A stretch of 59,130 nt of DNA, filler included, from Acidimicrobiia bacterium (GTDB taxonomy: Bacteria; Actinomycetota; Acidimicrobiia; Spongiisociales; JAHEDJ01), in NCBI GenBank assembly GCA_029210695.1. It is 5 parts of 5 records of this genome, joined end to end, with 100 filler letters (N's around TTAATTAATTAA, not from the genome) between each part and the next. Parts side by side here need not be neighbours in the genome. Positions count along the whole stretch, not along the records: positions 1 to 12,593 come from JARGFH010000082.1; 4 more parts are not named here. The stretch is one strand, 5' to 3'. The notes under the pieces were generated by a model that worked only from the letters and a program-made list of their open reading frames with translations, was not told where the DNA came from and ran no database searches. Numbering within the stretch: position 1 is the stretch's first letter; every line of letters starts with the position of its first letter. Both the position numbers and the translations under genes were made by a program. Positions 1 through 12,593 of the stretch are shown here, piece by piece.

Positions 1-74
1 ATCCGCAACGCTTCAGCAGTAGCAACCATCCCCCAACACTACACCGGTTCGCCATTTCAGCGACAGACCACTAG
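1..74 (-). mobile_element. IS630-family element, left end with transposase N-terminus (partial, contig edge)
   Basis: Minus strand reads CTAGTGGTCTGTCGCTGAAAT, then GGGGG-ATG at 29 giving MVATAEALR. The terminus GCGACAGACCACTAG (60-74) is identical to the IS630 end at 36814-36828. Confidence 0.7.
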
Positions 75-100
75 AACCTATAACCCAAAACCTAGAACCT
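71..100. repeat. Degenerate heptamer tandem repeat (CTAGAAC-type, 4 units)
   Basis: ctagaac-ctataac-ccaaaac-ctagaac, between the IS end and the stop codon of the carbamoyltransferase. Confidence 0.7.
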
Positions 101-102
101 CT

Positions 103-1077
103 TCACATCGTCAACGCCATCACGGCTTTTTGTGCGTGCAGTCGGTTCTCGGCCTGATCGTAAACGCGGCTCCAGCGACCATCGATGACGGCGTCGGCGA
201 CTTCCACGTTGCGATCCGCCGGCAGCGGGTGCATGTAGATGGCGTCTTCGTCGGCCATCTCCATGCGACGGGGGTCGACGATCCAGTCTGTGTAGTTCGC
301 CGAGATCTTCGCCGACTCCTCGTGATCCGAGGTGGTCAGCATCGATCCCCACGCCTTGGCGTAGACCACGTCGGCGCCGCGCATTCCCTCTTCGAAGTCC
401 TCGATGATCTCGAAACCTCCGTGCGCTGCCCTGGCGTTGTCCTCGGCCTGAGCAATGATCTCCGGCATCAGCTTGAACTCCGGCGGCCGGGTGAGCCGAA
501 CATTGGCGCCGTAGCGGGTCATCAGCAGGATGACACTCTGGGGCACACTGATCGGCTTCTGATAGCTCGATGCGTAGGCGTAGCTCATGTTGATCGTGAG
601 CTTGCGAGGGTCGCCCTTCTGTTCGATGATCGTGAGCAGATCGGCGAGGGCCTGGAACGGGTGGTACCAGTCGCATTGCATATTGAGGACCGGCGTCCGG
701 CTGGCTTCGGCAACTGCCCGGATGTACTGATTGCCGATGCCCCAATCGACGTTGCGGATGGCGATACCGTCGTCGTATCGGCCGAGGATCTCACCGATCT
801 CCCGCCACGTGTCGCCGTGTCCGATCTGGGTGGTGGTGCTGTCGAGGAACATGGCATGCCCGCCGAGTTGTGCCATCCCGGCCTCGAAGCTCGCCCTGGT
901 CCTCGTGCTCGAGAAGAAGAACAACATGGCGAGTACCTTGTTGTCCAGCAGCGCATGCTGTTCGCCGAGCGCACGACGTCGCTTGAGGTCGAGCGCCACG
1001 TCGATGATCGTGTCCAGCTCGTCTCTGGTCCACTCCTGGGTGGTGATCATGTCCCGCCCGTGCAGATGGGTTTGCAT
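103..1077 (-). CDS. Ornithine carbamoyltransferase-family protein, YgeW/knotted-type
   Basis: STRTR carbamoyl-phosphate motif, HPFQ, HPLPAD, QAENRLH. The segment YAYASSYQKPISVPQS resembles the YgeW WAYSPSYGKPLSVPQG motif. No OTCase SMG motif. AAAGGAG RBS. Confidence 0.85.
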   Translation of the reverse strand: MQTHLHGRDMITTQEWTRDELDTIIDVALDLKRRRALGEQHALLDNKVLAMLFFFSSTRTRASFEAGMAQLGGHAMFLDSTTTQIGHGDTWREIGEILGRYDDGIAIRNVDWGIGNQYIRAVAEASRTPVLNMQCDWYHPFQALADLLTIIEQKGDPRKLTINMSYAYASSYQKPISVPQSVILLMTRYGANVRLTRPPEFKLMPEIIAQAEDNARAAHGGFEIIEDFEEGMRGADVVYAKAWGSMLTTSDHEESAKISANYTDWIVDPRRMEMADEDAIYMHPLPADRNVEVADAVIDGRWSRVYDQAENRLHAQKAVMALTM

Positions 1078-1096
1078 CGATACTCCTTTGGTCTGG

Positions 1097-1828
1097 TCAG
1101 GCTCCGACTTTTCGCCTGATCAGGCGAAAGCGCAGCAAGTCGTCACGGAAGAATGAGGTCGATTGCACGACCGGTTCGTTGTCCTGGTCGTATCCAACCT
1201 CTTCAAAACTGAGTGCCGGTGTCCGGCGAGGAATGCCGAGTTCGTCCGCCTCGTGGGAAGGAAGTGCGACGGGAACGATCTCGGAGAGGTAGTAGCCGAG
1301 GGGTCGGTTGCAGTGCCGGTCGAGGAGGTCGTAGAGGGGGAGCGCTCCGGACTTTTTCGTGATCTCGACTTTGATGTGCCGGGTCGGGATCCGGTTGTAC
1401 GTAAGCACCACCGGACGGTCGTCTTCCAGGAATACCTTCTCGACGACCAGTACTGGTTCGCCGGATTCGATACCGAGATCCCCCGCCAGTGATTCTGATG
1501 CGGGCCGTGGAGTGAGTCCGATGACTCGGACAGATGGGGTATAGCCATGATCCTGGAGTACTTCCTCGTACGACCAGATCTCCTCGAGACGGGACTTGAT
1601 CTGGAGGCCCGGCTGGTTTACGAAGGTCCCGGCTCCCTGCTTGCGATAGATCGACCCCTCGTTCTCGAGCCTGCTGAGTGCGTCGCGAATCGTCGTCCTG
1701 CTCACCCCGAGCTCAGCCGCCAGCTCGGTCTCCGACGGAATGCGACCCTCCTCAAACGCGCCGGAAACGATGCGCTCCTTGAGGTTCGCTTTCACCTGGT
1801 CGGTGAGTGATGGGCTGCGGGTGATCAT
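1097..1828 (-). CDS. GntR-family transcriptional regulator (HutC subfamily, UTRA domain)
   Basis: wHTH IPSETELAAELGVSRTTIRDAL...QGAGTFV followed by a ~150-aa UTRA-type C-terminal domain. Confidence 0.93.
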   Translation of the reverse strand: MITRSPSLTDQVKANLKERIVSGAFEEGRIPSETELAAELGVSRTTIRDALSRLENEGSIYRKQGAGTFVNQPGLQIKSRLEEIWSYEEVLQDHGYTPSVRVIGLTPRPASESLAGDLGIESGEPVLVVEKVFLEDDRPVVLTYNRIPTRHIKVEITKKSGALPLYDLLDRHCNRPLGYYLSEIVPVALPSHEADELGIPRRTPALSFEEVGYDQDNEPVVQSTSFFRDDLLRFRLIRRKVGA

Positions 1829-1853
1829 CTGGCTAGCACGTCCGGTGATACTG

Positions 1854-1880
1854 TTGTATGATTGTATGACAAATCGTACA
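1854..1880. promoter_or_regulatory. Putative GntR operator in divergent promoter region
   Basis: Direct repeat TTGTATGA-TTGTATGA (1854-1869), palindrome TTGT-ATG-ACAA (1862-1872) and imperfect palindrome TGTATGA-caaa-TCGTACA (1863-1880). Matches the GT..AC-type GntR consensus. Confidence 0.6.
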
Positions 1881-1966
1881 GGAGGCTACCCCGCCTGTCC
1901 AGCCCCATCGGGGCGCGACACGAGGAGCCTCGAGTAACCGGTACCGCAATACGAGGAGAACAGCAC

Positions 1967-2917
1967 ATGCGCAGCTTCGCCGGAAGGGACATCCTTTCGC
2001 TCAAAGGTTTCGAACGAAACGAGTTCGAACACATCTTCCAGATCGCCGATGAACTCGAACCGATCGCCAGGGAACGCCGGAACGTCGATCTGCTGGCCGA
2101 GAAGACGATGGTGACGGCGTTCTACCAGCCGTCGACGCGCACCCGCCTCGCCCACGAAGCTGCGATGCACCGCCTCGGGGGCCACGTCACCGGGTTCTCG
2201 GATGCCAAGATGACCCGCGCCGGCGACTTCTACCAGGAGTCGATCAAGGACACCGTCCACATGCTCGAGTACTACGGCGACGTGCTCGTCATGCGCCACT
2301 TCCAGCAGGGTGCCCCGCACGAAGCTGCCAGGTGGGCATCGATTCCCGTCATCAATGCTGGTGATGGATGGGGGGAACATCCGACCCAGGTCCTTACCGA
2401 CCTCTACACGGTGCTGAACGAGAAGGGCACCATCGACGGGCTCACGTTTGTAGCCATCGGTGATCACCGGATGCGCACTATGCACTCCCTCGGCTACGCG
2501 CTGTCGCAGTTCGATGCGGAGATGGTGGTCCTCGCTCCCGAAGAGATGTCGCCGCTGCCCGAGTTCCTGGCAGAACTGGACGAGATGGGAACGAACTACC
2601 GGATCGTCGAGCACATCGACCAGGTGATTCACGAGGCAGACGTCATCTACATGGAGCCCGTCGTTCAGCCCGACTACACCCAGTCGCGCCAAGACAAGCA
2701 GGACGAGTACGGTCGGACGCCTGCCAACTACCAGATCACCAGAGAGGTCATGAAGCGGGCCAAGGGCGACTCGATCATCCTCCACTCGCTGCCCCGGATG
2801 GATGAGCTGCTGCCCGAGGTCGACCAGCTCAAGCACGCCCGCTACTGGCAAGAGGCCTACAACGGGGTCGTGATGCGGATGGCGCTGATTGCGTCAGTGC
2901 TCGGAGTGATGGAGTAA
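1967..2917 (+). CDS. Aspartate carbamoyltransferase-like protein (divergent PyrB-like)
   Basis: FYQPSTRT, INAGDGxGEHPTQ and HSLPR motifs. Start set at ATG 1967 behind GAGGAG. Lacks the YMTRxQ aspartate-binding motif (has YMEPVVQ). Confidence 0.85.
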   Translation: MRSFAGRDILSLKGFERNEFEHIFQIADELEPIARERRNVDLLAEKTMVTAFYQPSTRTRLAHEAAMHRLGGHVTGFSDAKMTRAGDFYQESIKDTVHMLEYYGDVLVMRHFQQGAPHEAARWASIPVINAGDGWGEHPTQVLTDLYTVLNEKGTIDGLTFVAIGDHRMRTMHSLGYALSQFDAEMVVLAPEEMSPLPEFLAELDEMGTNYRIVEHIDQVIHEADVIYMEPVVQPDYTQSRQDKQDEYGRTPANYQITREVMKRAKGDSIILHSLPRMDELLPEVDQLKHARYWQEAYNGVVMRMALIASVLGVME

Positions 2918-3861
2918 TGCCCAGACTCGTCATTGCCATCGGCGGTAACTCGCTCATTGCCGACAAGGACCACCAGACGGTGGAGGATCAGTACAACGCG
3001 GCCGCCGAGACCGACCAGCACATAGCGCAGCTCGTGAAGGGTGGCTGGGACGTGGCGATCTCTCACGGCAACGGACCGCAGGTGGGGTTCATCATGCGGC
3101 GCTCCGAGCTGGCGCGTGGGGAACTGCACGAGATCCCGATGGACGTTGCCGGAGCCGACACGCAGGGGGCGATCGGATATGCACTGCAGCAGAATCTGAT
3201 CAACGACTTCCGGGCGATGGGGATTCAGAAACCCGTCGTCACGGTTGTCACTCAGGTCGAGGTGAGCTCGACCGACCCGGCGATGCTCGACCCGTCCAAG
3301 CCGATCGGAACCTTTCTCGACGAAGAAGAAGCCAATCGGCGTCGCCAGGAGGAAGGTTGGGCGATCAAGGAAGATGCGGGGCGCGGTTGGCGACGGGTCG
3401 TCGCCTCACCTCAACCGCAGCGTATCGTCGAGATCGACGTGATCCGCCAGCTCATCGACTCCGGTGTGGTGGTGATCTGCGTCGGTGGCGGCGGTATTCC
3501 GGTAGTCGCCGATGAGAACGGCGACCTGCACGGAGTCGCGGCTGTGATCGATAAGGATCTCGCGTCGGCACTGTTGGCCAACCTGATCGACGCCGACATG
3601 CTGCTGATCTCGACTGCGGTCGAGAAGGTGGCACTCAACTTCGGCACGCCGGAGCAACGCTGGGTCGACCGGCTGACTCTGTCGGAGGTCAAGACGTACC
3701 TCGAGGAGGGCGGCCACTTCGGCGAAGGGTCGATGGCTCCGAAGATGCGAGCCGTCGTGCAGTTCCTCGAGGGCGGTGGAAAAGAAGCCTTGATCACCAA
3801 CCCGGCGAACCTCGAGCATGCCGTTGCCGGTGCAACAGGAACCCGTATCGTTCATGACTGA
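2917..3861 (+). CDS. arcC: Carbamate kinase
   Basis: AIGGNSL, HGNGPQVG, PSKPIG, WRRVVASPQP, GGGGIPV, AVIDKD and GSMAPK motifs. TAATG coupling to the upstream gene. Confidence 0.95.
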   Translation: MPRLVIAIGGNSLIADKDHQTVEDQYNAAAETDQHIAQLVKGGWDVAISHGNGPQVGFIMRRSELARGELHEIPMDVAGADTQGAIGYALQQNLINDFRAMGIQKPVVTVVTQVEVSSTDPAMLDPSKPIGTFLDEEEANRRRQEEGWAIKEDAGRGWRRVVASPQPQRIVEIDVIRQLIDSGVVVICVGGGGIPVVADENGDLHGVAAVIDKDLASALLANLIDADMLLISTAVEKVALNFGTPEQRWVDRLTLSEVKTYLEEGGHFGEGSMAPKMRAVVQFLEGGGKEALITNPANLEHAVAGATGTRIVHD

Positions 3862-5131
3862 CGGTCGTCTAGAGCATGTCACAGGTCTCGTCTGTGTGAT
3901 TTGCGGGCAGTCGTACCCGGCGGATGCGGCCGGGTACGTCTGCGGGGAATGCGGCAATGAGGGCATCCTCGATGTCCGATACGACTATGAGCGGGTCGGG
4001 TCGCGCCTCTCCAGGGAGTCACTGGCGGATGACCGTGAGATGACGATGTGGCGCTATCGGCCGCTCATGCCGGTCGCAGCCGATGCAGAGGTTCCGCCGC
4101 TCACGGTCGGTTGGACTCCAACCTACGACGCTCCCCGGCTGGCCGCCGCGCTCGGCCTGGCGGGGGTGTGGGTCAAGGATGAAGGCAGACAGCCGACTGC
4201 TTCTCTCAAGGATCGCGCCAGTGCCATGGCGCTGGTCAAGGCGCGGGAGGTCGGCGCGGACATCGTGACGACCGCCAGCACCGGCAACGCAGCAGCCGCG
4301 CTGAGCGGCTTGTCGGCTTCGATGGGTCAGAAGAACGTGATCTTCGTCCCCGAGTCTGCGCCACAAGCGAAGATTGCCCAGCTTCTCGCCTACGGATCGA
4401 TCGTTGTCCTCGTCAAGGGGAACTACGGGGATGCTTTCGATCTATGTATGGCCGCTTCGGCCGAATACGGGTGGTACAACCGCAACACGGGCTTCAACCC
4501 GTACATGACAGAAGGCAAGAAGACGGCCGGTCTCGAGATACTCGAACAACTCGAGTGGAACGCACCCGACGCCATATTTGTGAGTGTGGGTGATGGATCG
4601 ATCATCGGCGGGGTGCACAAGGCGATGAAGGATGCGCAGGCTCTCGGCTGGATCGATCACTCACCGCGCCTCTTCGGCATCCAGGCCGCCGGCAGCGACT
4701 TCCTCGTGCAGGCGTTCGAGAACAACGAAGACGTTCTCATCAAGGCGCCGATCTCCGCAGACACGCTGGCCGACTCGATCAGCGCCGACCTGCCGCGTGA
4801 CCGGATCAAGGCGATGGCGGCCGTCCGTGAAACCGGCGGCGCCTACCTGCGCGTCTCCGACGAAGCAATTCTGGCGGCGGTGCCGGTCCTGGCGCGCGGC
4901 TCGGGCGTATTTGCCGAGCCGGCCGGCGCGGCTGCCCATGCGGGCCTGATTGCCGCTGCCGAGCGCGGACTCGTCGGCTCATCCGATCGGGTGGTTGTCC
5001 TCTCGACCGGCAGCGGGCTCAAAGACGTGGCCTCGGCGATGAAGGCCGTTACGGCCGCCGGCACCGAGCCGATGGTGATCGAACCGACACTCGCTGCATT
5101 GAAGGAAGCCCTTGCCACCAGGGGCGAATGA
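3854..5131 (+). CDS. Threonine synthase-like PLP-dependent enzyme (fold type II) with N-terminal Zn ribbon
   Basis: CxxC...CxxC at the N-terminus, PTASLKDR (PLP lysine), ASTGNA, EGKKT, VGDG, FAEPAGA, STGSGLKD. Confidence 0.88.
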   Translation: MTDGRLEHVTGLVCVICGQSYPADAAGYVCGECGNEGILDVRYDYERVGSRLSRESLADDREMTMWRYRPLMPVAADAEVPPLTVGWTPTYDAPRLAAALGLAGVWVKDEGRQPTASLKDRASAMALVKAREVGADIVTTASTGNAAAALSGLSASMGQKNVIFVPESAPQAKIAQLLAYGSIVVLVKGNYGDAFDLCMAASAEYGWYNRNTGFNPYMTEGKKTAGLEILEQLEWNAPDAIFVSVGDGSIIGGVHKAMKDAQALGWIDHSPRLFGIQAAGSDFLVQAFENNEDVLIKAPISADTLADSISADLPRDRIKAMAAVRETGGAYLRVSDEAILAAVPVLARGSGVFAEPAGAAAHAGLIAAAERGLVGSSDRVVVLSTGSGLKDVASAMKAVTAAGTEPMVIEPTLAALKEALATRGE

Positions 5132-6609
5132 CCAACCACGAAGGACTACGCATGATCGATCTCACCATCCACGAAGCAACCCTGGAATCGGCCGTTACCC
5201 AGGCTCATCAACGTTCGATTCGCATCCCGACCTTCAAGCAGATGCGCGATCCGTCCTTGATCCCCGACTCGATCAAGCAAGAACTGACGTCCGTCGGGTT
5301 GTGGGATCTCGACCCTCGCAACCTGTTTCGGATCACCTGGCACAACGAGCCGACCCCGAGCGGTGGCGGCTACGGGCCGGTCAACTACATAGAACTTCCC
5401 TCGGAACTGACCGGCACGCCGGCCAGGATTCTCCTCCTCGAAGGCAAGTGGTTCCCGACCGGTGCCCACAAAGTGGGAGCCGCCTTCGGATGCCTGGTGC
5501 CCCGCCTGGTCACGGGCCAGTTCGATCCCGCTACTCAGAAGGCGGTCTGGCCATCGACGGGCAACTACTGCCGGGGAGGCGCCTACGACTCGCATCTGCT
5601 GGCGTGCGAATCCGTCGCAATCCTTCCTGAGGGGATGAGCCGGGAGCGGTTCGACTGGTTGAGGACCGTGGCAGGCGAGATCATCGCCACGCCGGGAACA
5701 GAGTCGAACGTCAAGGAGATCTTCGACAAGTGCAACGAACTGCGCGCCTCGGGGGAGGACCTGGTGATCTTCAACCAGTTCGACGAGTTCGGAAACTACT
5801 TGTGGCACTACGCGGTGACGGGTCCGGCCATGGTCGAGGTGCTCGAGGCAGCGATGCGACCCGGAGACGAGTTCCGCGGCGTGACCCTGACCACCGGCTC
5901 GGCCGGCACGATCGCCTCGGGCGACTACCTCAAGCAGCTGTACCCCAACTCCAAGATCGCAGCAGGCGAAGCCATCCAGTGCCCGACCATTCTCTACAAC
6001 GGCTTCGGCGAGCACCGGATCGAGGGAATCGGCGATAAGCACATCCCCTGGATCCATAACGCCAAGAACACTGATATGGCGATCGGTCTGGATGATGAGG
6101 CGACGATTTCCCTCACTCGCTTGTTCAACGAACCGGCCGGAACGGCCTATCTGGCCGACCAGGGAGTCGCACCCGGTCTGATCGAGAAGCTGCCGCTGCT
6201 CGGGATTTCCGGAATCGGCAACATGCTCATGGCGATCAAGATGGCCAAGTACTACGAGATGGGCTCCCAGGATGTCATCGTAACCGTCGGCACCGACTCT
6301 ATGGAGATGTACGGAAGCCGCCTGCGAGAACTGAACGACGAGCGTGGAGAGTTCACGACTCTCGACGCGGCCGCCGCCTACCACCGCTACTTGCTCGGGC
6401 AGGGAATCGACCACGTCCAAGAACTCGGGTACTACGACCGCAAGCGGGTCCACAACCTGAAGTACTACACATGGGTCGAGCAGCAGGGCAAGACCTACGA
6501 GGAGATCCAGGCACAGTGGTACGACCCCGACTACTGGACGAACATCCAGGCCATGGTCGACCCGATCGATGAGCTGATCGAGGCCTTCAACACCAGGGTT
6601 GATCTGTAG
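5128..6609 (+). CDS. PLP-dependent enzyme, fold type II (cysteine synthase/TrpB-like), substrate unknown
   Basis: FPTGAHKVG (PLP lysine), PSTGNY, TGSAGT, HRIEGIGD. ATGA overlap with the upstream stop; alternative start at 5152. Confidence 0.85.
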   Translation: MTNHEGLRMIDLTIHEATLESAVTQAHQRSIRIPTFKQMRDPSLIPDSIKQELTSVGLWDLDPRNLFRITWHNEPTPSGGGYGPVNYIELPSELTGTPARILLLEGKWFPTGAHKVGAAFGCLVPRLVTGQFDPATQKAVWPSTGNYCRGGAYDSHLLACESVAILPEGMSRERFDWLRTVAGEIIATPGTESNVKEIFDKCNELRASGEDLVIFNQFDEFGNYLWHYAVTGPAMVEVLEAAMRPGDEFRGVTLTTGSAGTIASGDYLKQLYPNSKIAAGEAIQCPTILYNGFGEHRIEGIGDKHIPWIHNAKNTDMAIGLDDEATISLTRLFNEPAGTAYLADQGVAPGLIEKLPLLGISGIGNMLMAIKMAKYYEMGSQDVIVTVGTDSMEMYGSRLRELNDERGEFTTLDAAAAYHRYLLGQGIDHVQELGYYDRKRVHNLKYYTWVEQQGKTYEEIQAQWYDPDYWTNIQAMVDPIDELIEAFNTRVDL

Positions 6610-6618
6610 CACTTCGAC

Positions 6619-6670
6619 CATTTCCGGCGCCATATTCCGGGTCGATCCGCCCGGAATGTGGCGCGAAATG
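6619..6670 (+). terminator. Long hairpin after the PLP operon (putative terminator/stabiliser)
   Basis: Arms CATTTC-cg-GCGCCA-t-ATTCCGGG and CCCGGAAT-g-TGGCGC-GAAATG pair with one bulge and one G-U pair. No U-tract. Confidence 0.55.
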
Positions 6671-6772
6671 CTGACAGGGATCATCAGACCGGGTGGCCGG
6701 TCTCTCGATGATGCAACCGCACCTTCTCCGGCCTAGGCTCACTCTGTAATTGGACCCAAGGGAAGGGTGTCT

Positions 6773-8182
6773 ATGAGATACAAGTCCTGGTTTGCTCTGT
6801 TCGTGGTGTTTGCCCTCGTGTTCGCCGCGTGTGGCGACTCCACAGATGAGACAACCCCCGATGATGGTGGAACCGACGTCACGGCTGTGCCGGGCACGGT
6901 CACAACCATTGACATTTGGATTGCGTTTGCCGACGGACCCCGTCTCACCTACACGGAAGAGCGGGCCGCCGAGTTCAACTCTGCACACTCGGACTACAAC
7001 GTCGCGGTAACGGCGTTCGATTCGTACAACACCGTGTTTGAGCAGGCGCAGTTGGCGCTCGAGGGTGGCAACCCGCCCGAGATCATTCACTTCTTCGAGG
7101 CCGCCACCCAGGAGGCTCTCGATACGGTGGATGCAGACGGAAATCCGATCTTCAAGTCGGTGACCGAGGCGATCGGTGGTCGCACCGAGATTCTCGGTGA
7201 GCCTGTGATCCTCGATGACGTCGTTTCGGCCGCCCGGAACTACTACACCGTCGACGGCGAGTTTTACTCGATGCCGTGGAACACCTCCTCGGCGATCATG
7301 TTCGTTAATCAGGACATCCTCGACGCCGCAGGCGTCGCCGAGATCCCGAAAACCTGGGCAGACGTCGACGCGGCCTGCGAGAAGATCATGGCGATAGCCG
7401 ATGCGCCCAAGGGCTGCATCACTTGGCCGAACCATTCGTGGTTCGTCGAGCAGACGCTGGGTCAAGAAGGTGAGTTGCTGGCGAACAACGACAACGGCCG
7501 CGATGGTCGGGCCACCGAGGTCTACCTCGACTCCGATGGCATGGTCGCCTACTTCGAGTGGTGGAAGAGCCTCGACGATCTGGGCTACTACATCTACACC
7601 GGCGTTCAGCGCGACTGGGACGGCACCAACACTGCCTTCCAGGCACAAGAGGTCGGTATGTTGATCTACTCGTCCTCAGATACGACGGTAATCACCGAGA
7701 CGGGCACCGAGAACGGTTTCAACGTTGTGGCAGCACCAATGCCCTACAACGGCGACGTGCCGTACGAAGGCAACCTGATCGGTGGAGCGACGTTGTGGTT
7801 GCGAAATGGGCTGGACACCGTGACGGAAGATGGCGCCCTGGCGTTCATGAACTTCTTCTCGAATCCTGCCAACGCGGCCGAGTGGCACAAGATCACGGGT
7901 TACATCCCGATCACAGAGGCTGCCGTGCAACTACTCAAGGACGAGGGCTTCTACGACGAGAGCCCGAACAGCCTGGTCGCATCCGACCAACTGGCTGCTG
8001 CGGCAGATACGCCAGCCGCCAGGGGTGCGTTGCTCGGTAACTTCGTTGCCATTCGTGACGTCATCACCGCGGCCGCGGAGGACATGCTCGTCAACGACAT
8101 AGATCCAAAGCAACGGCTGACAGAAGCAAACGCAGAAGCCCAACAGCTTCTCGACGAGTACAACTCCCTCTTCGGTGGCTAA
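6773..8182 (+). CDS. ABC transporter solute-binding lipoprotein, UgpB-like (CUT1 family)
   Basis: Lipobox FAAC. YSMPWNTSS, GGATLW and WHKITGYIP match UgpB-type motifs. Confidence 0.85.
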   Translation: MRYKSWFALFVVFALVFAACGDSTDETTPDDGGTDVTAVPGTVTTIDIWIAFADGPRLTYTEERAAEFNSAHSDYNVAVTAFDSYNTVFEQAQLALEGGNPPEIIHFFEAATQEALDTVDADGNPIFKSVTEAIGGRTEILGEPVILDDVVSAARNYYTVDGEFYSMPWNTSSAIMFVNQDILDAAGVAEIPKTWADVDAACEKIMAIADAPKGCITWPNHSWFVEQTLGQEGELLANNDNGRDGRATEVYLDSDGMVAYFEWWKSLDDLGYYIYTGVQRDWDGTNTAFQAQEVGMLIYSSSDTTVITETGTENGFNVVAAPMPYNGDVPYEGNLIGGATLWLRNGLDTVTEDGALAFMNFFSNPANAAEWHKITGYIPITEAAVQLLKDEGFYDESPNSLVASDQLAAAADTPAARGALLGNFVAIRDVITAAAEDMLVNDIDPKQRLTEANAEAQQLLDEYNSLFGG

Positions 8183-8192
8183 TCGTTAGCCG

Positions 8193-9563
8193 ATGAGTGC
8201 GTTACTCGCACTACTAGCGGGGGCCGGGGCCGGCGCGTACGGATTCCGTACGGCGCGCCGGCTTCGCCCCGCCCGGCGATACCTCGTGGGTGCCCTGCTG
8301 GGCACCCTCGGGGCGGTCGTTGTTTCCGTCTTGACAGGTGGTTGCGCCTACAGCCCTGAGGTCGACGCTGCCCAACACATCCTCGGTATCGCGGTTGCCG
8401 GCGGGATAGGACTAGCCGTTGCGTCCGGCACGTCGGTCGTTCTCGCTTCCGCCAAGGGTGGGAGAGACGCCGGCAGTATCGGGAGCGACATCCGCACCGG
8501 TACCTACCGGCTCGGTTGGTGGTGGCCCTGGGCGCTTCTGCTGCCGACCATCGTCATCCTGGTCGTCTTTCTCTACGTCCCGGCGGTCCAAACGTTCACG
8601 CTCTCCACGAAACTGGTCCGGTTGGGGGCACCCCGTCAGATCGAGGTGTGTCTCGCCAACTTCTCAGAACTCCTCACGCCCAACCCGTGGATTCTGGTCA
8701 TTCTCCCTTTGATCGCGGTCGGGGTCATGTGGGGGCTCGGGTTGTGGAAGCGACGGGCGAGCTTGGGGTCGATGAGCCTGACCGCCGCCACCGCGCTTCA
8801 GCCCTTCGGGATCGTGGTGTTGCTGCTGGCCCTCTACTACATGTTCAACGGAGGCCCCAGGGGATATCGCGGCATCTACGTCAACACGCTGGTTGTGTCG
8901 GCAGGGACCGTTGCCGGTGGCATGATTCTCGGCCTGGCCGTGGCGTACCTCGCCTTCCAGAAGGTTCGCGGGATGACCGTCTACCGGACGTTGCTCATCT
9001 GGCCGTATGCGGTCTCTCCTCCGGTCGCCGGCATCCTCTTCTTCATGATGTTCGACCCGACCGCCGGCATCATCCAGCATCTGTTCGAACTGGTTGGGGT
9101 TACCTTCCCCAACTACCGGGAGGATGTGTTCCTGGCCCGGTTCGCCGTCATCGCCGCCTCGACTTGGAAGATCCTCGGCTACAACGTGCTCTTTTACCTG
9201 GCCGGCCTTCAGAACGTTCCGGGTGATCAGATCGAAGCTTCGGTCCTCGATGGGGCCTCGGCCTGGCAGCGCTTTCGGTACGTGGTGACGCCTTCGCTCG
9301 CTCCGATCACCTTCTTCCTCCTGATCACCAACCTGACCTACGCGTTCTTCGAGGTGTACGGCACCATCGATTACCTGACCAGGGGCGCCCCGGCCGGCAA
9401 GACTTCTGTGGCCATCTACGAGATCATTCGCGTCGGCGTCGAGAACCGGGATATCGGTCGGGGTGCTGCCCAGTCGGTGCTGCTCTTCTTGGCGGTGATC
9501 GGTTTGACCGTCTGGCAGTTCAAACAGTCGGAGAGTCGTATCACCTATGGAGGCGGGGGATGA
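8193..9563 (+). CDS. Carbohydrate ABC transporter permease, UgpA-like, with N-terminal membrane extension
   Basis: EAA motif EASVLDGASAWQRF, YRTLLIWPYAVSPPVAG, multiple TM helices. Confidence 0.88.
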   Translation: MSALLALLAGAGAGAYGFRTARRLRPARRYLVGALLGTLGAVVVSVLTGGCAYSPEVDAAQHILGIAVAGGIGLAVASGTSVVLASAKGGRDAGSIGSDIRTGTYRLGWWWPWALLLPTIVILVVFLYVPAVQTFTLSTKLVRLGAPRQIEVCLANFSELLTPNPWILVILPLIAVGVMWGLGLWKRRASLGSMSLTAATALQPFGIVVLLLALYYMFNGGPRGYRGIYVNTLVVSAGTVAGGMILGLAVAYLAFQKVRGMTVYRTLLIWPYAVSPPVAGILFFMMFDPTAGIIQHLFELVGVTFPNYREDVFLARFAVIAASTWKILGYNVLFYLAGLQNVPGDQIEASVLDGASAWQRFRYVVTPSLAPITFFLLITNLTYAFFEVYGTIDYLTRGAPAGKTSVAIYEIIRVGVENRDIGRGAAQSVLLFLAVIGLTVWQFKQSESRITYGGGG

Positions 9564-10408
9564 CCGGGCTCGCAGTAGGTGTACGAAAGAAGAACTGGTT
9601 CCGGGGTCGGTCCTGGCCGGTCCACGGCGCTCTCATCCTCACGACGTTCCTGATCGGGTTCCCGCTCGCCTACGCGGCGCTCATCGCCACCCAGTCGAAT
9701 CCCGATGTGTTCGCTTTCAAGTTGACACCCGGTGACTCGCTGGCTCAGAACTTCCAGGACGTTTGGTTCGGCCGGAATCTCGGTCGCTACATGTGGAACT
9801 CGACGGTTCAGTCTGTGCTGATCACCGTCGCCAAGACGATCCTGTCACTGGCGGCGGGACTGGCGTTCGTCTACTTCCGATTCAAGGCGAAATGGATTGT
9901 GTTCTTCTTCGTGCTGATCACGTTGATGATGCCGACCGAGGTCATGATCCTGGCTCTCTTCCGATTGGTGTCTGCCTTCGATTGGAAGGACACGATGGCG
10001 GCGCTGGTCGTTCCGTTCGCGGCCTCGGCCACCGGCGCGTTCCTGTTCAGGCAGCATTTCGCCAACCTGCCGAACGATCTCGCTGAGGCATCGCAGGTCG
10101 ACGGGGCCAGTCCGCTCCAGTTCCTCACCAAGGTCCTGATTCCGCTGTCCTGGAACACCATCGGGGCCCTGGCGGTCATTCAGTTCGTCTACGGCTGGAA
10201 CATGTACTTGTGGCCTGTCCTGATCATTTCGAAGCAGGAGGCCCAGGTCATTCAGGTGGGCCTGCAGAATCTGCAGGGTATCGACGTCGGGTTGACGTAC
10301 GGACCGTTGATGCTCGCCGCCCTGCTGGCATCGATCCCGCCGACCATCGTGTTCATTCTGCTTCAGAAGCCGTTCATGTCGGGTTTCTCGATCACGGCCG
10401 ACAAGTAA
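9560..10408 (+). CDS. Carbohydrate ABC transporter permease, UgpE-like
   Basis: EAA motif EASQVDGAS, ASATGAFLFRQHF, WNMYLWP. ATGA overlap. Confidence 0.9.
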   Translation: MTGLAVGVRKKNWFRGRSWPVHGALILTTFLIGFPLAYAALIATQSNPDVFAFKLTPGDSLAQNFQDVWFGRNLGRYMWNSTVQSVLITVAKTILSLAAGLAFVYFRFKAKWIVFFFVLITLMMPTEVMILALFRLVSAFDWKDTMAALVVPFAASATGAFLFRQHFANLPNDLAEASQVDGASPLQFLTKVLIPLSWNTIGALAVIQFVYGWNMYLWPVLIISKQEAQVIQVGLQNLQGIDVGLTYGPLMLAALLASIPPTIVFILLQKPFMSGFSITADK

Positions 10409-10490
10409 ACCGACTCGTTCTGGGCTGCCGGCGAACTGGCCGGCCCCGGTACGGCTCTAGAATCCTGCAACGAACACAGGGGACAATCGA

Positions 10491-10727
10491 ATGACTGCTG
10501 GCTTGGTGGGTCTTGTCGTCGGGATACTCGGTTTGGGCGGGCTAGCCCTCCATCTGTGGGCGATCATCGATGTCGTCCGCACGCCGGCTCCGGTGTGGGC
10601 CCGGGCCAACCAAAATCAGATTGTCTGGGCGCTGGTCGTGCTGCTGTTCTCGCTGCTCGGGCCGATCCTGTACCTCGTAATCGCCCGCCCTGCATTGCAG
10701 GCAGCCGGCGGAGACTCAATCGCCTGA
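10491..10727 (+). CDS. Small membrane protein, PLDc_N-like
   Basis: LWAIIDV...W.LVVLLFSLLGPILY pattern typical of the phospholipase D N-terminal two-helix domain. Confidence 0.75.
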   Translation: MTAGLVGLVVGILGLGGLALHLWAIIDVVRTPAPVWARANQNQIVWALVVLLFSLLGPILYLVIARPALQAAGGDSIA

Positions 10728-10741
10728 GAAGTAACTCTCCG

Positions 10742-10769
10742 ATTGGCCTATGGCCTATGGCCTATGGCC
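10742..10769. repeat. Heptamer tandem repeat (TATGGCC x4)
   Basis: attggcc-tatggcc-tatggcc-tatggcc between convergent genes, overlapping the DUF885 3' end. Confidence 0.75.
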
Positions 10770-12409
10770 ATGTCTATCCATTCGTCGACCATCCGGGCGA
10801 GGGTCTCCATCGGAACGTCGCCGTGTCCGAGAACCACATCGTGGAAGTCCTTGATGTCGAACCGATCGGCCAGGCGTGCCTCCGCGTTGGAGCGGATCTC
10901 CTCGATTTCGAGTCGGCCCATCATGTATCCGAGGGCCTGGCCCGGCACACCAACATATCGGTCGATTTCGCCCTCGACCTGTGTCCGCGTCATCGGGCTG
11001 TGGTCGAGCATGTAGCGAATCGCTTGTTCGCGTGACCACCCGAGGGCATGGAGGCCGGTATCCACGACCAACCGGCAGGCCCGCATCGAGTCGGCCGCCA
11101 GCATGCCGACCCGGTCGAGATCAGACGAATACAGCCCCATCTCGTCCGCGACCCGCTCCGTGTAGAGGGCCCACCCTTCGAGGTATGCAACGGAGAGCGG
11201 TTCGTGGTGAATCGGATGAAGATCCTCGTTCTCGAGCGCCAGGGCTACCTGCAGGTGGTGGCCTGGAATCCCTTCGTGATATGTCGTTGCTTCGACCTGG
11301 AAGGTTCCCCACATCGACGGGTCGGCGGTGTTGAAGAAGAACGTCCCGGGCTTGGAACCGTCTATAGCGGGTTGCGAATAGAACGCAAGGGGCCCCTGCT
11401 CGATCGATTTGGCAACACACGGCGCTTTCGGCAGGACGCCGAACCAGTCGCCCATGGCCGCCGCGGCCCTGGCGAGCGCACGGGTGGCATCTGCCACGAG
11501 GGTCGCGGCATCGGAGTAGTGAAGAGCGGGATCGCTGCGAAGCCGATCGTATATCTCGGCGACGTTCGTTGTGCCGAGGAGCGGGCCGGCAATCTGCGGG
11601 TATTCGTCTTCGAGTTTCTCCACTTGCTGCCGGCCGATGTCGTGGACCCGGCGAGACGGCACCGCTCTCGTGACATTCGCCCACACCAAACGCTCATAGC
11701 TCTCGGCCCCGCCGTCCAGATACACGAGACCGGGTTGACTATCGGGGCGCGCCGCCGGAAGGGCCACGTCGTGGACCACCTTCCGAAGATCGGACAACGC
11801 CGGTCGGACCTGATCGGTGAGGATGGCGGCCAGCCGGTCCCTCCAGCGTGCAGCTTCGGTTGCGGTCATCTCGGTTGGTGCAGGTTGGGCGAGGAGCGGA
11901 TCGGTCGGTGCCCCGAGATGGCGATCGAGGCCGGCCAGTGTCTGCTCACCGATGGTGCGGTTGGCGACCCGGCCCCTTGCAACGGCCGACACAATCCGGG
12001 CCGCGAATTCCGTGAGAGTGTCCGGGAGATTGGCCATTCTCACCAGATAGCGCTCGCCGTGCTCGGCCGTCGTCAACGGAAACCGCGGACCGAAGGTCAG
12101 AAGCATCGGATGGAAACCCATATTCGAGTTGAAGAGCTGGAGATCGTGATACCACTCGAGTTGCTCGTCGGTCGACCCCGCAGCAAAGGCGATCAGGTCG
12201 AGCGTTGGATGGGGTCCGATCTCGACTGTGGCTGCTCCTGCCGTGGAAGCGAAACGCCGTAGCTCCGACCGTCGATGTTCGACGCCATCCGGCGTGAAGT
12301 CCTCCCAGAGTTCGAGGGTGTCGAGGTTGCCCTTCCAGAGCGCACCCATTCGGTCGGATTGCAGATGGAACGCGTGGAACTCGTCGGCGAGGGCGGTGAT
12401 GGTGTCCAT
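10748..12409 (-). CDS. DUF885 family protein (metallopeptidase-like)
   Basis: YHEGIPGHHLQ, EGWALYTE, RACRLVVDTGLH, PGQALGY, FDIKDFHD. Confidence 0.92.
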   Translation of the reverse strand: MDTITALADEFHAFHLQSDRMGALWKGNLDTLELWEDFTPDGVEHRRSELRRFASTAGAATVEIGPHPTLDLIAFAAGSTDEQLEWYHDLQLFNSNMGFHPMLLTFGPRFPLTTAEHGERYLVRMANLPDTLTEFAARIVSAVARGRVANRTIGEQTLAGLDRHLGAPTDPLLAQPAPTEMTATEAARWRDRLAAILTDQVRPALSDLRKVVHDVALPAARPDSQPGLVYLDGGAESYERLVWANVTRAVPSRRVHDIGRQQVEKLEDEYPQIAGPLLGTTNVAEIYDRLRSDPALHYSDAATLVADATRALARAAAAMGDWFGVLPKAPCVAKSIEQGPLAFYSQPAIDGSKPGTFFFNTADPSMWGTFQVEATTYHEGIPGHHLQVALALENEDLHPIHHEPLSVAYLEGWALYTERVADEMGLYSSDLDRVGMLAADSMRACRLVVDTGLHALGWSREQAIRYMLDHSPMTRTQVEGEIDRYVGVPGQALGYMMGRLEIEEIRSNAEARLADRFDIKDFHDVVLGHGDVPMETLARMVDEWIDMAIGHRP

Positions 12410-12518
12410 GCGCTCACGCTAGCGGCGATCTGGTCGGGTGACGATGGGCATGAGGAATATCCAATGTCTACAAGGGATTCCGCCTTCACTTGCCTCTCCG
12501 GGGGGCCGATACATTCAG

Positions 12519-12593
12519 CCTGGATCCACCGGTCTGATCGGTGTCTGACGGTTGGGATTGACATAGAAAATGCCTTCTGACCTGGGAGAATGA
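12519..12593 (+). mobile_element. Probable IS1380-family left end (partial, contig edge)
   Basis: Begins CCTGGATCCACCG, an IS1380-like terminal IR recognised from memory. Followed by TTGACA and TGACCTGGGA. Runs 75 bp to the contig break, like the other IS stubs. Confidence 0.55.

Follow-up and report, generated by a model that had tools for sequence, protein, structure and literature searches.

A carbamoyltransferase and PLP enzyme module in an Acidimicrobiia genome as a candidate variant of the reductive urate pathway

Introduction

What might two non-canonical carbamoyltransferases be doing beside a carbamate kinase and two pyridoxal phosphate (PLP) enzymes? The question is raised by a 59,130-nucleotide stretch of DNA from an Acidimicrobiia bacterium (GenBank assembly GCA_029210695.1; hereafter the window), of which positions 1–12593 are a single contig (C162) and the remainder comes from other contigs. 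At 103–6609 the window encodes an ornithine carbamoyltransferase (OTCase)-like protein related to YgeW (OTCl), a GntR/HutC-family regulator, a protein derived from aspartate carbamoyltransferase (ATCase) that we call ATCl, a carbamate kinase, and PLP enzymes of the ThrC fold (ThrCl) and the CysK/CBS fold (PALP493). An initial annotation of the sequence had presented these six genes as a candidate undescribed module for ureido and purine catabolism; Pfam and NCBIfam profiles locate all six where that annotation had placed them.

The relevant background is a route of urate breakdown, the reductive (2,8-dioxopurine) pathway, outlined here from the available excerpts of its sources. Urate is converted to 2,8-dioxopurine by XdhD-YgfM or XdhAC (bioRxiv 10.1101/2025.04.24.650524; PMC12507026). 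YgfK takes 2,8-dioxopurine to its dihydro compound, SsnA produces ureidomethylhydantoin and HyuA converts this to 2,3-diureidopropionate (bioRxiv 10.1101/2025.04.24.650524; PMC12507026; PMC12990295). YgeW then uses phosphate to release one ureido group as carbamoyl phosphate, from which YqeA makes ATP; YgeY hydrolyses the second ureido group and YgeX turns diaminopropionate into pyruvate (bioRxiv 10.1101/2025.04.24.650524; PMC12507026). One point is disputed between the two 2025 papers, namely whether the group released by YgeW is the 3- or the 2-ureido, and a commentary, which lists the stereochemistry as a further open point, describes the pathway as restricted to anaerobes (PMC12990295).

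Judged by its motifs and gene neighbourhood, the module is a variant of this known pathway, and we call it a variant because searches of the source genome yielded neither YgeY nor YgeX. It probably carries out the closing steps, in which 2,3-diureidopropionate would be phosphorolysed twice, with a yield of two carbamoyl phosphates and thence two ATP, and the resulting diaminopropionate would be disposed of by the PLP pair. The overall interpretation offered by the initial annotation is supported by genomic context, from which we infer the enzyme activities, and the di-ureido substrate that it had imagined coincides with the published intermediate 2,3-diureidopropionate (PMC12990295).

Results

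The module accompanies genes of reductive urate degradation

The source genome (G000) is a 3.9-Mb assembly of 181 contigs and is 97.85% complete. Genes on C162 were identified with Pfam and NCBIfam profiles, for which scores are given below as bits and cut-off. A link to purines had been guessed from the six genes alone, and it holds up in the gene context: relatives have YgfK, SsnA and XdhD-type genes at the flanks of the module or next to it, and colinearity indicates the same arrangement for the source genome. There, contig C110 encodes YgfK (TIGR03315, 887 bits, cut-off 835), a short SsnA, a YgfM-like FAD subunit, an XdhD-like protein and XdhC. Alignment by blastn shows C162 and C110 to be colinear with one contig of the sister genome G001; since the two abut on that contig, YgfK would lie about 10 kb from PALP493 in the source genome as well.

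A survey of the order to which the source genome belongs covered 41 genomes, two of them unpublished (G010 and G021) and included in the tallies of OTCl, YgfK, YgeX and hydantoinase; OTCl is present at E ≤ 1e-60 in 20 of the 41. The module of distant relatives is flanked by xanthine-dehydrogenase-family molybdoenzymes and YgfK (896 bits, cut-off 835), by SsnA-like and 8-oxoguanine-deaminase-like amidohydrolases, and by Bmp-type nucleoside transporters. One genome (G025) carries ATCl, OTCl, carbamate kinase (arcC), ThrCl, PALP493, a 340-residue SsnA and YgfK in a single co-directional row. YgfK lies directly beside the module in two further genomes (G011 and G040) and 8–14 kb away on the same contig in four (G001, G004, G006 and G029). 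Of the 20 genomes with OTCl, 17 have a strong YgfK match, as do 3 of the 21 that lack OTCl; because the 41 genomes are related, this co-occurrence does not amount to a statistical test.

Two enzymes of the published pathway were not found in the source genome: the best match to YgeX scores 86.8 bits (cut-off 276) and the best to YgeY 49.5 bits (cut-off 321.5). YgeX exceeds its cut-off in only three of the 41 relatives, and among those only G036 has OTCl. The initial annotation had suggested that the PLP enzymes stand in for YgeX (DpaL), and this lack of a YgeX match in the source genome agrees with the suggestion, the functions of the pair being read from context.

A broader view comes from a scan of species-representative genomes with a PALP493 alignment, which returned at least 598 loci. 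The best 80, at 62–79% identity, were examined within ±10 kb, and many of these end early at contig ends. Among the best 80 of the at least 598 loci, PALP493 has as neighbours ThrCl in 56, OTCl or YgeW in 39, arcC in 35, HyuA-like genes in 28, Xdh-like genes in 16 and SsnA-like genes in 10, and YgeX in none; 6 of the 49 loci of at least 15 kb in this set showed none of the markers. The 39 loci with OTCl or YgeW divide into 17 with ATCl only, 8 with YgeY only, 1 with both and 13 with neither. A Terriglobia locus combines a true YgeW (68% identical to the E. coli protein) with YgeY, ThrCl and PALP493, and an SAR324 locus combines a true YgeW (66%) with YgeY, carbamate kinase, ThrCl and PALP493; neither has YgeX. 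Because ATCl and YgeY mostly alternate and YgeX is never found beside the PLP pair in these best 80 loci, we read the pattern as two putative substitutions, in which ATCl stands in for YgeY and the ThrCl/PALP493 pair for YgeX. The initial annotation had proposed a survey of homologue neighbourhoods for xdh, ssnA, hydantoinase and ygeY: all four kinds of gene do occur near homologues, but the source genome itself yielded neither a hydantoinase homologue at E ≤ 1e-60 nor a YgeY match over its cut-off.

Two recurrent short proteins were seen in this context. The short SsnA (339–340 residues; contig C110 L042:7969-8991 on the minus strand, L023:14086-15108 and L027:3871-4890) matches positions ~57–340 of a 441-position model so that the two termini of the E. 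coli protein are missing; YgfK begins 18 bases after it in G025, which leaves no room for the missing C-terminal part. Separately, a protein of ~590–715 residues whose match to YgfK is limited to the N-terminal 400 positions is encoded at L021:6184-7968, at L027:2084-3859 and in nine further genomes, and it also occurs in genomes free of the module (G007, G015, G017, G018, G026, G030, G035 and G038).

OTCl is a compact YgeW-like carbamoyltransferase

Four carbamoyltransferases are encoded in the source genome, two in the module and, on other contigs, a canonical ATCase (369.8 bits, TIGR00670) and a canonical OTCase (361 bits, NF001986). The initial annotation had regarded the module enzymes as non-canonical, and this view stands on both counts that it named: they are not the only copies in the genome, and they are unlike ordinary ArgF and PyrB, since the aspartate- and ornithine-binding motifs are missing from ATCl and OTCl. 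The canonical ATCase gene does not sit beside pyrC; it lies on contig C11 (L001:1381-2409) between genes for a short-chain dehydrogenase/reductase and a PotC-like permease, and its counterpart in G027 (L057:6444-7454), also away from pyrC, follows a Bmp-type ABC transporter.

OTCl falls below every NCBIfam carbamoyltransferase equivalog, including those for OTCase (263.5/306 and 247.7/280.85), N-acetylornithine carbamoyltransferase (AOTCase; 236.5/288) and putrescine carbamoyltransferase (PTCase; 226.7/500), and it is likewise under the cut-offs of the YgeW models TIGR03316 (172.6/500) and NF005538 (186.3/453). The ornithine motifs DxxxSMG and HCLP are missing from OTCl and its orthologues; OTCl reads KAWGSML and HPLP. 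With E. coli YgeW it shares a SYxKP[IL]SVPQ loop (SYQKPISVPQS in OTCl, SYGKPLSVPQG in YgeW), a lysine at the position of OTCase Asp231 (start of the 240s loop) and an inserted segment of the 120s loop after the IR motif. A lysine at the start of the 240s loop and an extended 120s loop are described, in the part of the source available, as marks of knotted carbamoyltransferases (PMC4581275).

The initial annotation had called for a phylogeny of both enzymes against the wider carbamoyltransferase family. Our tree of 41 rows, in which two proteins were entered twice, had E. coli PyrB, ArgI and YgeW and the canonical copies as its references, not AOTCase or PTCase. In this tree OTCl falls with true YgeW (support 83/77) and separately from the canonical OTCases (97/91); ATCl forms a clade of its own, sister to the canonical ATCases. 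The label YgeW-like is thus apt by loop motifs and by this small tree, although the best profile scores of OTCl are to OTCase, below cut-off. By sequence, OTCl matches E. coli YgeW (PDB 3q98) at 168 bits; it is more compact (324 against 396 residues), and in the alignment it is without the long two-helix insertion in the 240s loop and the extra N- and C-terminal helices. A homologue search with OTCl gave, among the matches listed, near-identical Acidimicrobiia proteins under generic names ("N-acetylornithine carbamoyltransferase", "ornithine carbamoyltransferase").

ATCl is an ATCase derivative with an altered substrate site

ATCl passes the general ATCase model (TIGR00670, 255.2/236.95) and falls below a second one (NF002032, 242/263). 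Aligned with E. coli PyrB, ATCl and seven orthologues retain STRTR, HPTQ and the equivalent of Arg167. All eight have lost three other PyrB features: the Lys84 region reads AGDFYQE, HPLP reads HSLP, and the RxQxER motif with Arg229 and Gln231 is replaced by MEPVVQPDYTQSR, where ATCl has MEPVVQPDYT, which includes a five-residue insertion. In ATCase, according to the excerpt available, Arg229 and Gln231 anchor the β-carboxylate of aspartate, and Arg167 and Lys84 position the α-carboxylate (PMC4581275). Because the α-carboxylate site is kept and the β-carboxylate site lost, ATCl should take the Nα (2-) ureido group.

The closest described proteins are the pseudo-ATCases, of which three subgroups were distinguished by Barba et al. 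in 2013 (PMC4016543). In the available text, subgroup 1 is a ureidoglycine carbamoyltransferase that acts on allantoate, subgroup 2 (Nocardioides sp. JS614) adjoins a ygeW homologue, xdhABC and hyuA, and subgroup 3 has HSLP and VxP; that text leaves subgroups 2 and 3 without a function, and a search in it for the words "pyridoxal", "threonine" and "diaminopropionate" gave no hit (PMC4016543). Matched against the motif table, ATCl keeps STRT and HPTQ, has lost RxQ and carries HSLP. It resembles subgroup 2, by description only, in lying beside a YgeW-like gene in a purine and xdh context, and subgroup 3, by motif only, in that V-Q-P in its 240s loop fits VxP. A tblastn search of a plasmid collection with ATCl found only ordinary pyrB genes, at no more than 41% identity.

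A PLP pair occupies the place of YgeX

ThrCl passes two threonine synthase models (NF006050, 304.2/303; TIGR00260, 175.3/167.1) and is far from the DpaL model (52.6/276). It conserves the PLP-binding lysine in SLKDR and an N-terminal CxxC...C motif. All four solved threonine synthases carry an arginine in NPxR[LI]EGQKT, which we take to bind the substrate phosphate, and ThrCl has a methionine at this position. A better-scoring canonical thrC (245.6 bits) is encoded elsewhere in the source genome. By its active-site signature, ThrCl is predicted not to be a threonine synthase.

PALP493 has only its fold in common with CysK: it scores 75.5 bits against a cysK cut-off of 350.95 and gave no match to DpaL at E ≤ 0.001. 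Its GAHK lysine and GSAGT loop are invariant. An AlphaFold2 model (predicted local distance difference test score, pLDDT, 78) has a CysK/CBS-like core with helical N- and C-terminal extensions, which are conserved; the best Protein Data Bank matches of the model are CysK and CBS, with template modelling (TM) scores of 0.72–0.78 on the target (0.78 for CysK). The best 80 of the at least 598 PALP493 loci, a family spread over many phyla, come from Chloroflexota, Desulfobacterales, SAR324, Terriglobia, Halanaerobiales, Spirochaetota, Synergistaceae and others. Look-alike clusters of ~490 residues appear in a protein atlas in several phyla, none with a functional name, and a homologue search gave, among the matches listed, near-identical Acidimicrobiia proteins named "cysteine synthase" or "pyridoxal-phosphate dependent enzyme". 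A predicted complex of ThrCl with PALP493 scored 0.01 (mark 0.32), which says nothing either way about a heteromer.

The final enzyme of the published pathway, YgeX, is itself a PLP enzyme of fold-type II, and ThrCl and PALP493 occupy its place where it is missing; the difference is that neither belongs to the DpaL family and that two proteins stand for one. Further fold-type II PLP paralogues in the source genome, at C111:11112-12089 and C136:2428-3228, are a third ThrC-like gene (162 bits, just under the cut-off) and a 445-residue open reading frame (ORF); the latter is the genome's best, though weak, match to the DpaL model (86.8 bits). Two PALP493 orthologues are broken, that of G027 (C2:75420-76889) by an in-frame TAA and that of G011 (C39:62947-64402) by a split into two frames, and these copies are either assembly errors or decaying genes.

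Carbamate kinase and arginine genes

Carbamate kinase converts carbamoyl phosphate and ADP to ATP, NH3 and CO2. The enzyme encoded in the module exceeds its cut-off (TIGR00746, 376.8/358.25) and is the only one found in the source genome. The initial annotation had stated that no arcA, aguA or pyr genes accompany it, which is true for the 12.6-kb contig but not for the genome, where other contigs carry an arginine-deiminase-like (arcA-like) gene (C98:35406-36590, 423 bits, cut-off 489) and an agmatine-deiminase-like (aguA-like) gene (C159:95937-96923, 254 bits, cut-off 382).

The five enzyme genes mostly stay together in relatives

A lack of conserved linkage in other genomes had been named among the grounds for rejecting the module, and the linkage was found to be conserved. 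Among 15 module neighbourhoods retrieved from relatives, the ATCl-OTCl-arcC trio is kept in every one and all five enzyme genes lie inside the fetched stretch in 12, with the split PALP493 of G011 counted. The three exceptions are G028, G037 and G027, in the last of which ThrCl and PALP493 lie 20 kb from the trio on the same contig. The order ATCl-OTCl-arcC-ThrCl-PALP493 on one strand is seen in about half of these loci. ORFs in high-GC loci were called with a filter on GC content at third codon positions.

Environmental libraries contain related sequences, in one case with a hint of expression. In an estuary metatranscriptome, contigs 88–93% alike, which by this figure come from relatives, cover pieces of OTCl, ATCl-arcC, arcC-ThrCl, ThrCl-PALP493, PALP493 and the downstream DUF885 gene. 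Three of them bridge gene junctions, although carry-over of DNA in the library is possible, and the ABC-transporter part of the contig has almost no cover in this RNA library. Sediment and estuary DNA runs hold pieces ~95% alike, with one contig that spans the transporter and DUF885. A search of sequencing runs gave shares of 0.20 or less.

Operon layout, regulation and neighbouring genes

OTCl and the regulator are co-directional and divergent from the enzyme operon (Table 1). We consider ATG 1967 the most likely start of ATCl, in preference to TTG 1862, because ATGCGCAGC preceded by AGGAG is kept there in all eight aligned intergenic regions. The arcC gene overlaps ATCl by 1 nt and overlaps ThrCl as well. 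PALP493 probably starts at the methionine of residue 9 (nt 5152), 21 nt past the ThrCl stop, because its orthologues begin at that methionine. The enzyme genes had been described as translationally coupled, which fits the first junctions (ATCl-arcC and arcC-ThrCl) but not ThrCl-PALP493, in view of this 21-nt gap.

Table 1. Features on the first contig of the window, with positions counted along the window.
Feature	Position	Strand	Basis
OTCl, OTC-like YgeW-related carbamoyltransferase, 324 aa	103-1077	-	Pfam OTCace_N + OTCace
GntR/HutC-family regulator with UTRA effector domain	1097-1828	-	Pfam GntR + UTRA
Operator-like element in the divergent intergenic region; core GTATGAnnAAT at 1864-1874	1846-1880	none	8-region alignment
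ATCl, ATCase-derived carbamoyltransferase ("pseudo-ATCase"), 316 aa	1967-2917	+	TIGR00670
Carbamate kinase (ArcC/YqeA type)	2917-3861	+	TIGR00746
ThrCl, ThrC-fold PLP enzyme with N-terminal Cys-rich ribbon	3818-5131 (start may be 3854)	+	PALP domain, NF006050
PALP493, CysK/CBS-fold PLP enzyme, 493 aa (485 aa from probable start 5152)	5128-6609	+	PALP domain
UgpB-type ABC transporter: binding protein and two permeases, no ATPase gene	6767-10408	+	Pfam + NCBIfam
DUF885 protein	10748-12409	-	Pfam DUF885, 434.8 bits

The GTATGAnnAAT core is invariant across the eight aligned intergenic regions, and the conserved element around it is a putative operator that the regulator may bind. Of the 15 relatives' loci, 7 have a GntR/UTRA regulator adjoining the module, as have 10 of the best 80 of the at least 598 cross-phylum loci. 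The ABC transporter is found at the module only in the source genome and its sister G001 among the 15 loci, and it is an accessory neighbour outside the conserved core. It sits between PALP493 and DUF885 in these two genomes, and its genes look like a recent insertion because they are absent from the same place in G004, a member of the same genus in which the DUF885 gene, a neighbour at the level of the genus, follows PALP493 directly. The first permease (456 residues) has an N-terminal extension of ~200 residues ahead of its UgpA-like part.

Discussion

A proposed route from urate to pyruvate

In the scheme that we propose, the XdhD-like and YgfM-like proteins, YgfK and the short SsnA encoded on the neighbouring contig at ~10 kb would, together with a hydantoinase, convert urate to 2,3-diureidopropionate. 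OTCl would release one ureido group of this compound with phosphate, probably the 3-ureido group, and ATCl would release the other with phosphate, probably the 2-ureido group, in place of the hydrolase YgeY. Carbamate kinase would then turn two carbamoyl phosphates into two ATP, ThrCl and PALP493 would together replace YgeX in converting 2,3-diaminopropionate to pyruvate and ammonia, and the GntR/HutC regulator would control the divergent promoters. The substrates, the order of ureido removal, the yield of two ATP and the division of labour between the PLP enzymes are all deduced by analogy. Action of OTCl on the 3-ureido group agrees with the order given in the available part of the preprint (bioRxiv 10.1101/2025.04.24.650524).

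The likeness to the reductive urate cluster of E. coli and Clostridium sporogenes lies in the YgfK gene of the source genome, in its SsnA-type and XdhD/YgfM-type genes (SsnA and the XdhD-like protein scoring below their cut-offs) and in the YgeW-like carbamoyltransferase with carbamate kinase, by which ureido phosphorolysis would be coupled to ATP through the same logic. The differences are that a second, ATCase-derived carbamoyltransferase stands in the module where that cluster has YgeY (an M20 amidase), that a ThrC-fold and CysK-fold PLP pair stands where it has YgeX, that SsnA is short, that no HyuA was found in the source assembly and that the host belongs to an environmental Acidimicrobiia lineage.

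How much of this is new can be stated narrowly. The initial annotation had called the module undescribed, a word that fits the variant with two carbamoyltransferases and two PLP enzymes but not the parent pathway, which was published in 2025, nor the occurrence of a pseudo-ATCase beside a ygeW homologue and xdh, which was noted in 2013; we limit the claim to the variant because of this earlier work. A full-text literature search, with preprint supplements outside its reach, found no paper that describes either the two-carbamoyltransferase or the two-PLP variant. The available part of one 2025 paper notes SsnA in Actinomycetota and colours gene neighbourhoods by PF00185 and PF00291 (PMC12507026), a scheme in which these substitutions would therefore be hidden.

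Points that weigh against the proposed route

Several observations count against the route as proposed. Upstream, SsnA scores 240–257 bits, below its cut-offs of 455 and 444, and is the 340-residue short form; the XdhD-like protein scores 709 bits against the TIGR03313 (Se_sel_red_Mo/XdhD) cut-off of 1102; and no D-hydantoinase or HyuA homologue was found at E ≤ 1e-60 in G000, G025, G031 or G040, genomes that are 97–99% complete. The best TIGR02033 (HyuA) match in the source genome scores 147 bits (cut-off 393). The hydantoinase family occurs in 34 of the 41 relatives, with or without the module, and one copy lies beside YgfK in G029. As bypasses of the missing hydantoinase, PLP-driven ring opening of 5-amino-dihydrouracil and acyl-urea phosphorolysis were each considered and dropped as unsupported.

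Within the module, two PLP enzymes stand where one (YgeX) suffices in E. coli. Family f12 (G028 and G037) is without ThrCl at E ≤ 1e-60 and has only a PALP493-like protein of 49–50% identity. Conversely, G016 has YgfK, a short SsnA and a YgeX-type lyase, and neither OTCl nor PALP493 was found in it. The assignment of OTCl and ATCl to the 3- and 2-ureido groups is our inference, because the 2025 papers disagree on YgeW; the carbamoyltransferase tree is without references for AOTCase, N-succinylornithine carbamoyltransferase (SOTCase) and PTCase; and the literature search found no assay of any module enzyme. Finally, as an arcA-like gene lies on another contig, arginine breakdown could be a further use of the genome's only carbamate kinase. 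In G016 (L147:955-2094; L148:6381-10996) there is an XdhD-like gene too, and its YgeX-type diaminopropionate ammonia-lyase is 47.5% identical to the E. coli protein.

Alternative explanations

We consider it unlikely that the module serves to degrade a non-purine substrate, a ureido or carbamoyl amino acid (for example albizziin, a citrulline-like compound or an N-carbamoyl amino acid) taken up by the adjacent ABC transporter, with ATP gained through carbamate kinase. The UgpB-type transporter does follow the operon in G000 and G001, the HutC-type regulator suggests a small-molecule inducer, and the excerpted source places subgroup 3 pseudo-ATCases, with HSLP and V-x-P, beside a symporter, an asparaginase and HyuC and not beside purine genes (PMC4016543). 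However, the transporter is poorly conserved (2 of 15 relatives' loci), the conserved neighbours are YgfK, SsnA and Xdh, and the co-occurrence with YgfK would be left unexplained.

An allantoate-type route appears quite improbable. ATCl would then be a ureidoglycine carbamoyltransferase like Rubrobacter Rxyl_2847, which converts allantoate and phosphate to ureidoglycine and carbamoyl phosphate, and would belong to the oxidative urate pathway. Subgroup 1 pseudo-ATCases, with an adjoining carbamate kinase, were given this activity experimentally, by the part of the study available (PMC4016543), and allantoate and 2,3-diureidopropionate are both di-ureido acids (PMC12990295). Against this, ATCl has HSLP where subgroup 1 is listed with HPLA (PMC4016543), the linked genes belong to the reductive route, and no uricase or allantoinase gene lies beside the module in the annotated loci, the whole genome not having been searched for them.

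Ordinary catabolism is very unlikely. In this reading OTCl and carbamate kinase would be the remaining steps of an arginine deiminase pathway, and the reverse reaction of ATCl would act on carbamoyl-aspartate formed when orotate or pyrimidines are broken down. It could draw on the arcA-like gene (below its cut-off, at 423 against 489 bits), on the passing TIGR00670 score of ATCl and on the hydantoinase/dihydropyrimidinase homologues of the order (34 of 41 genomes). Yet OTCl is without the ornithine-binding DxxxSMG and HCLP, ATCl is without the aspartate-binding Arg229, Gln231 and Lys84, the arcA-like gene is on another contig, and a canonical OTCase is available for arginine.

That the module makes a metabolite containing a ureido group or diaminopropionate, for which carbamate kinase would supply the carbamoyl phosphate, is hardly credible. 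In its favour, carbamoyltransferases that carbamoylate diaminopropionate or diaminobutyrate occur in antibiotic clusters (PMC4581275, in part), and diaminopropionate is made by CysK- and SbnA-like PLP enzymes, with weak SbnA matches seen here. Against it, no non-ribosomal peptide synthetase, polyketide synthase or tailoring genes lie nearby, and the regulator and neighbours are catabolic, with the module linked across phyla to xanthine-dehydrogenase-type, deaminase and YgfK genes.

Implications for purine catabolism in environmental bacteria

Returning to a module that closes the reductive urate pathway, we offer more speculatively, and with more doubt than confidence, a wider proposal. Several phyla of environmental bacteria (Acidimicrobiia, Chloroflexota and others), and not gut anaerobes alone, may run a higher-yield form of the pathway in which both ureido groups would give ATP through two carbamoyltransferases, ATCl taking the 2-ureido group and YgeW-type enzymes the 3-ureido group, and in which a ThrC-fold enzyme and an extended CysK-fold enzyme would act as a pair on (probably D-) 2,3-diaminopropionate, a chemistry of no known enzyme pair. 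If this is true, the published dispute over YgeW would be settled in favour of 3-ureido cleavage; in any case the module provides comparative evidence on the choice of ureido group by YgeW.

The reductive urate pathway, worked out in gut bacteria only in 2025, has been taken to be limited to anaerobes; the module would represent a widespread environmental version with three enzyme replacements. It offers a testable function for three large families that are misannotated as "aspartate carbamoyltransferase", "threonine synthase" and "cysteine synthase". Enzymes that drive urate breakdown forward while gaining ATP are also of practical interest for engineered urate-lowering probiotics. If ATCl works as proposed, purine fermentation by this route would yield two ATP per urate by substrate-level phosphorylation, not one.

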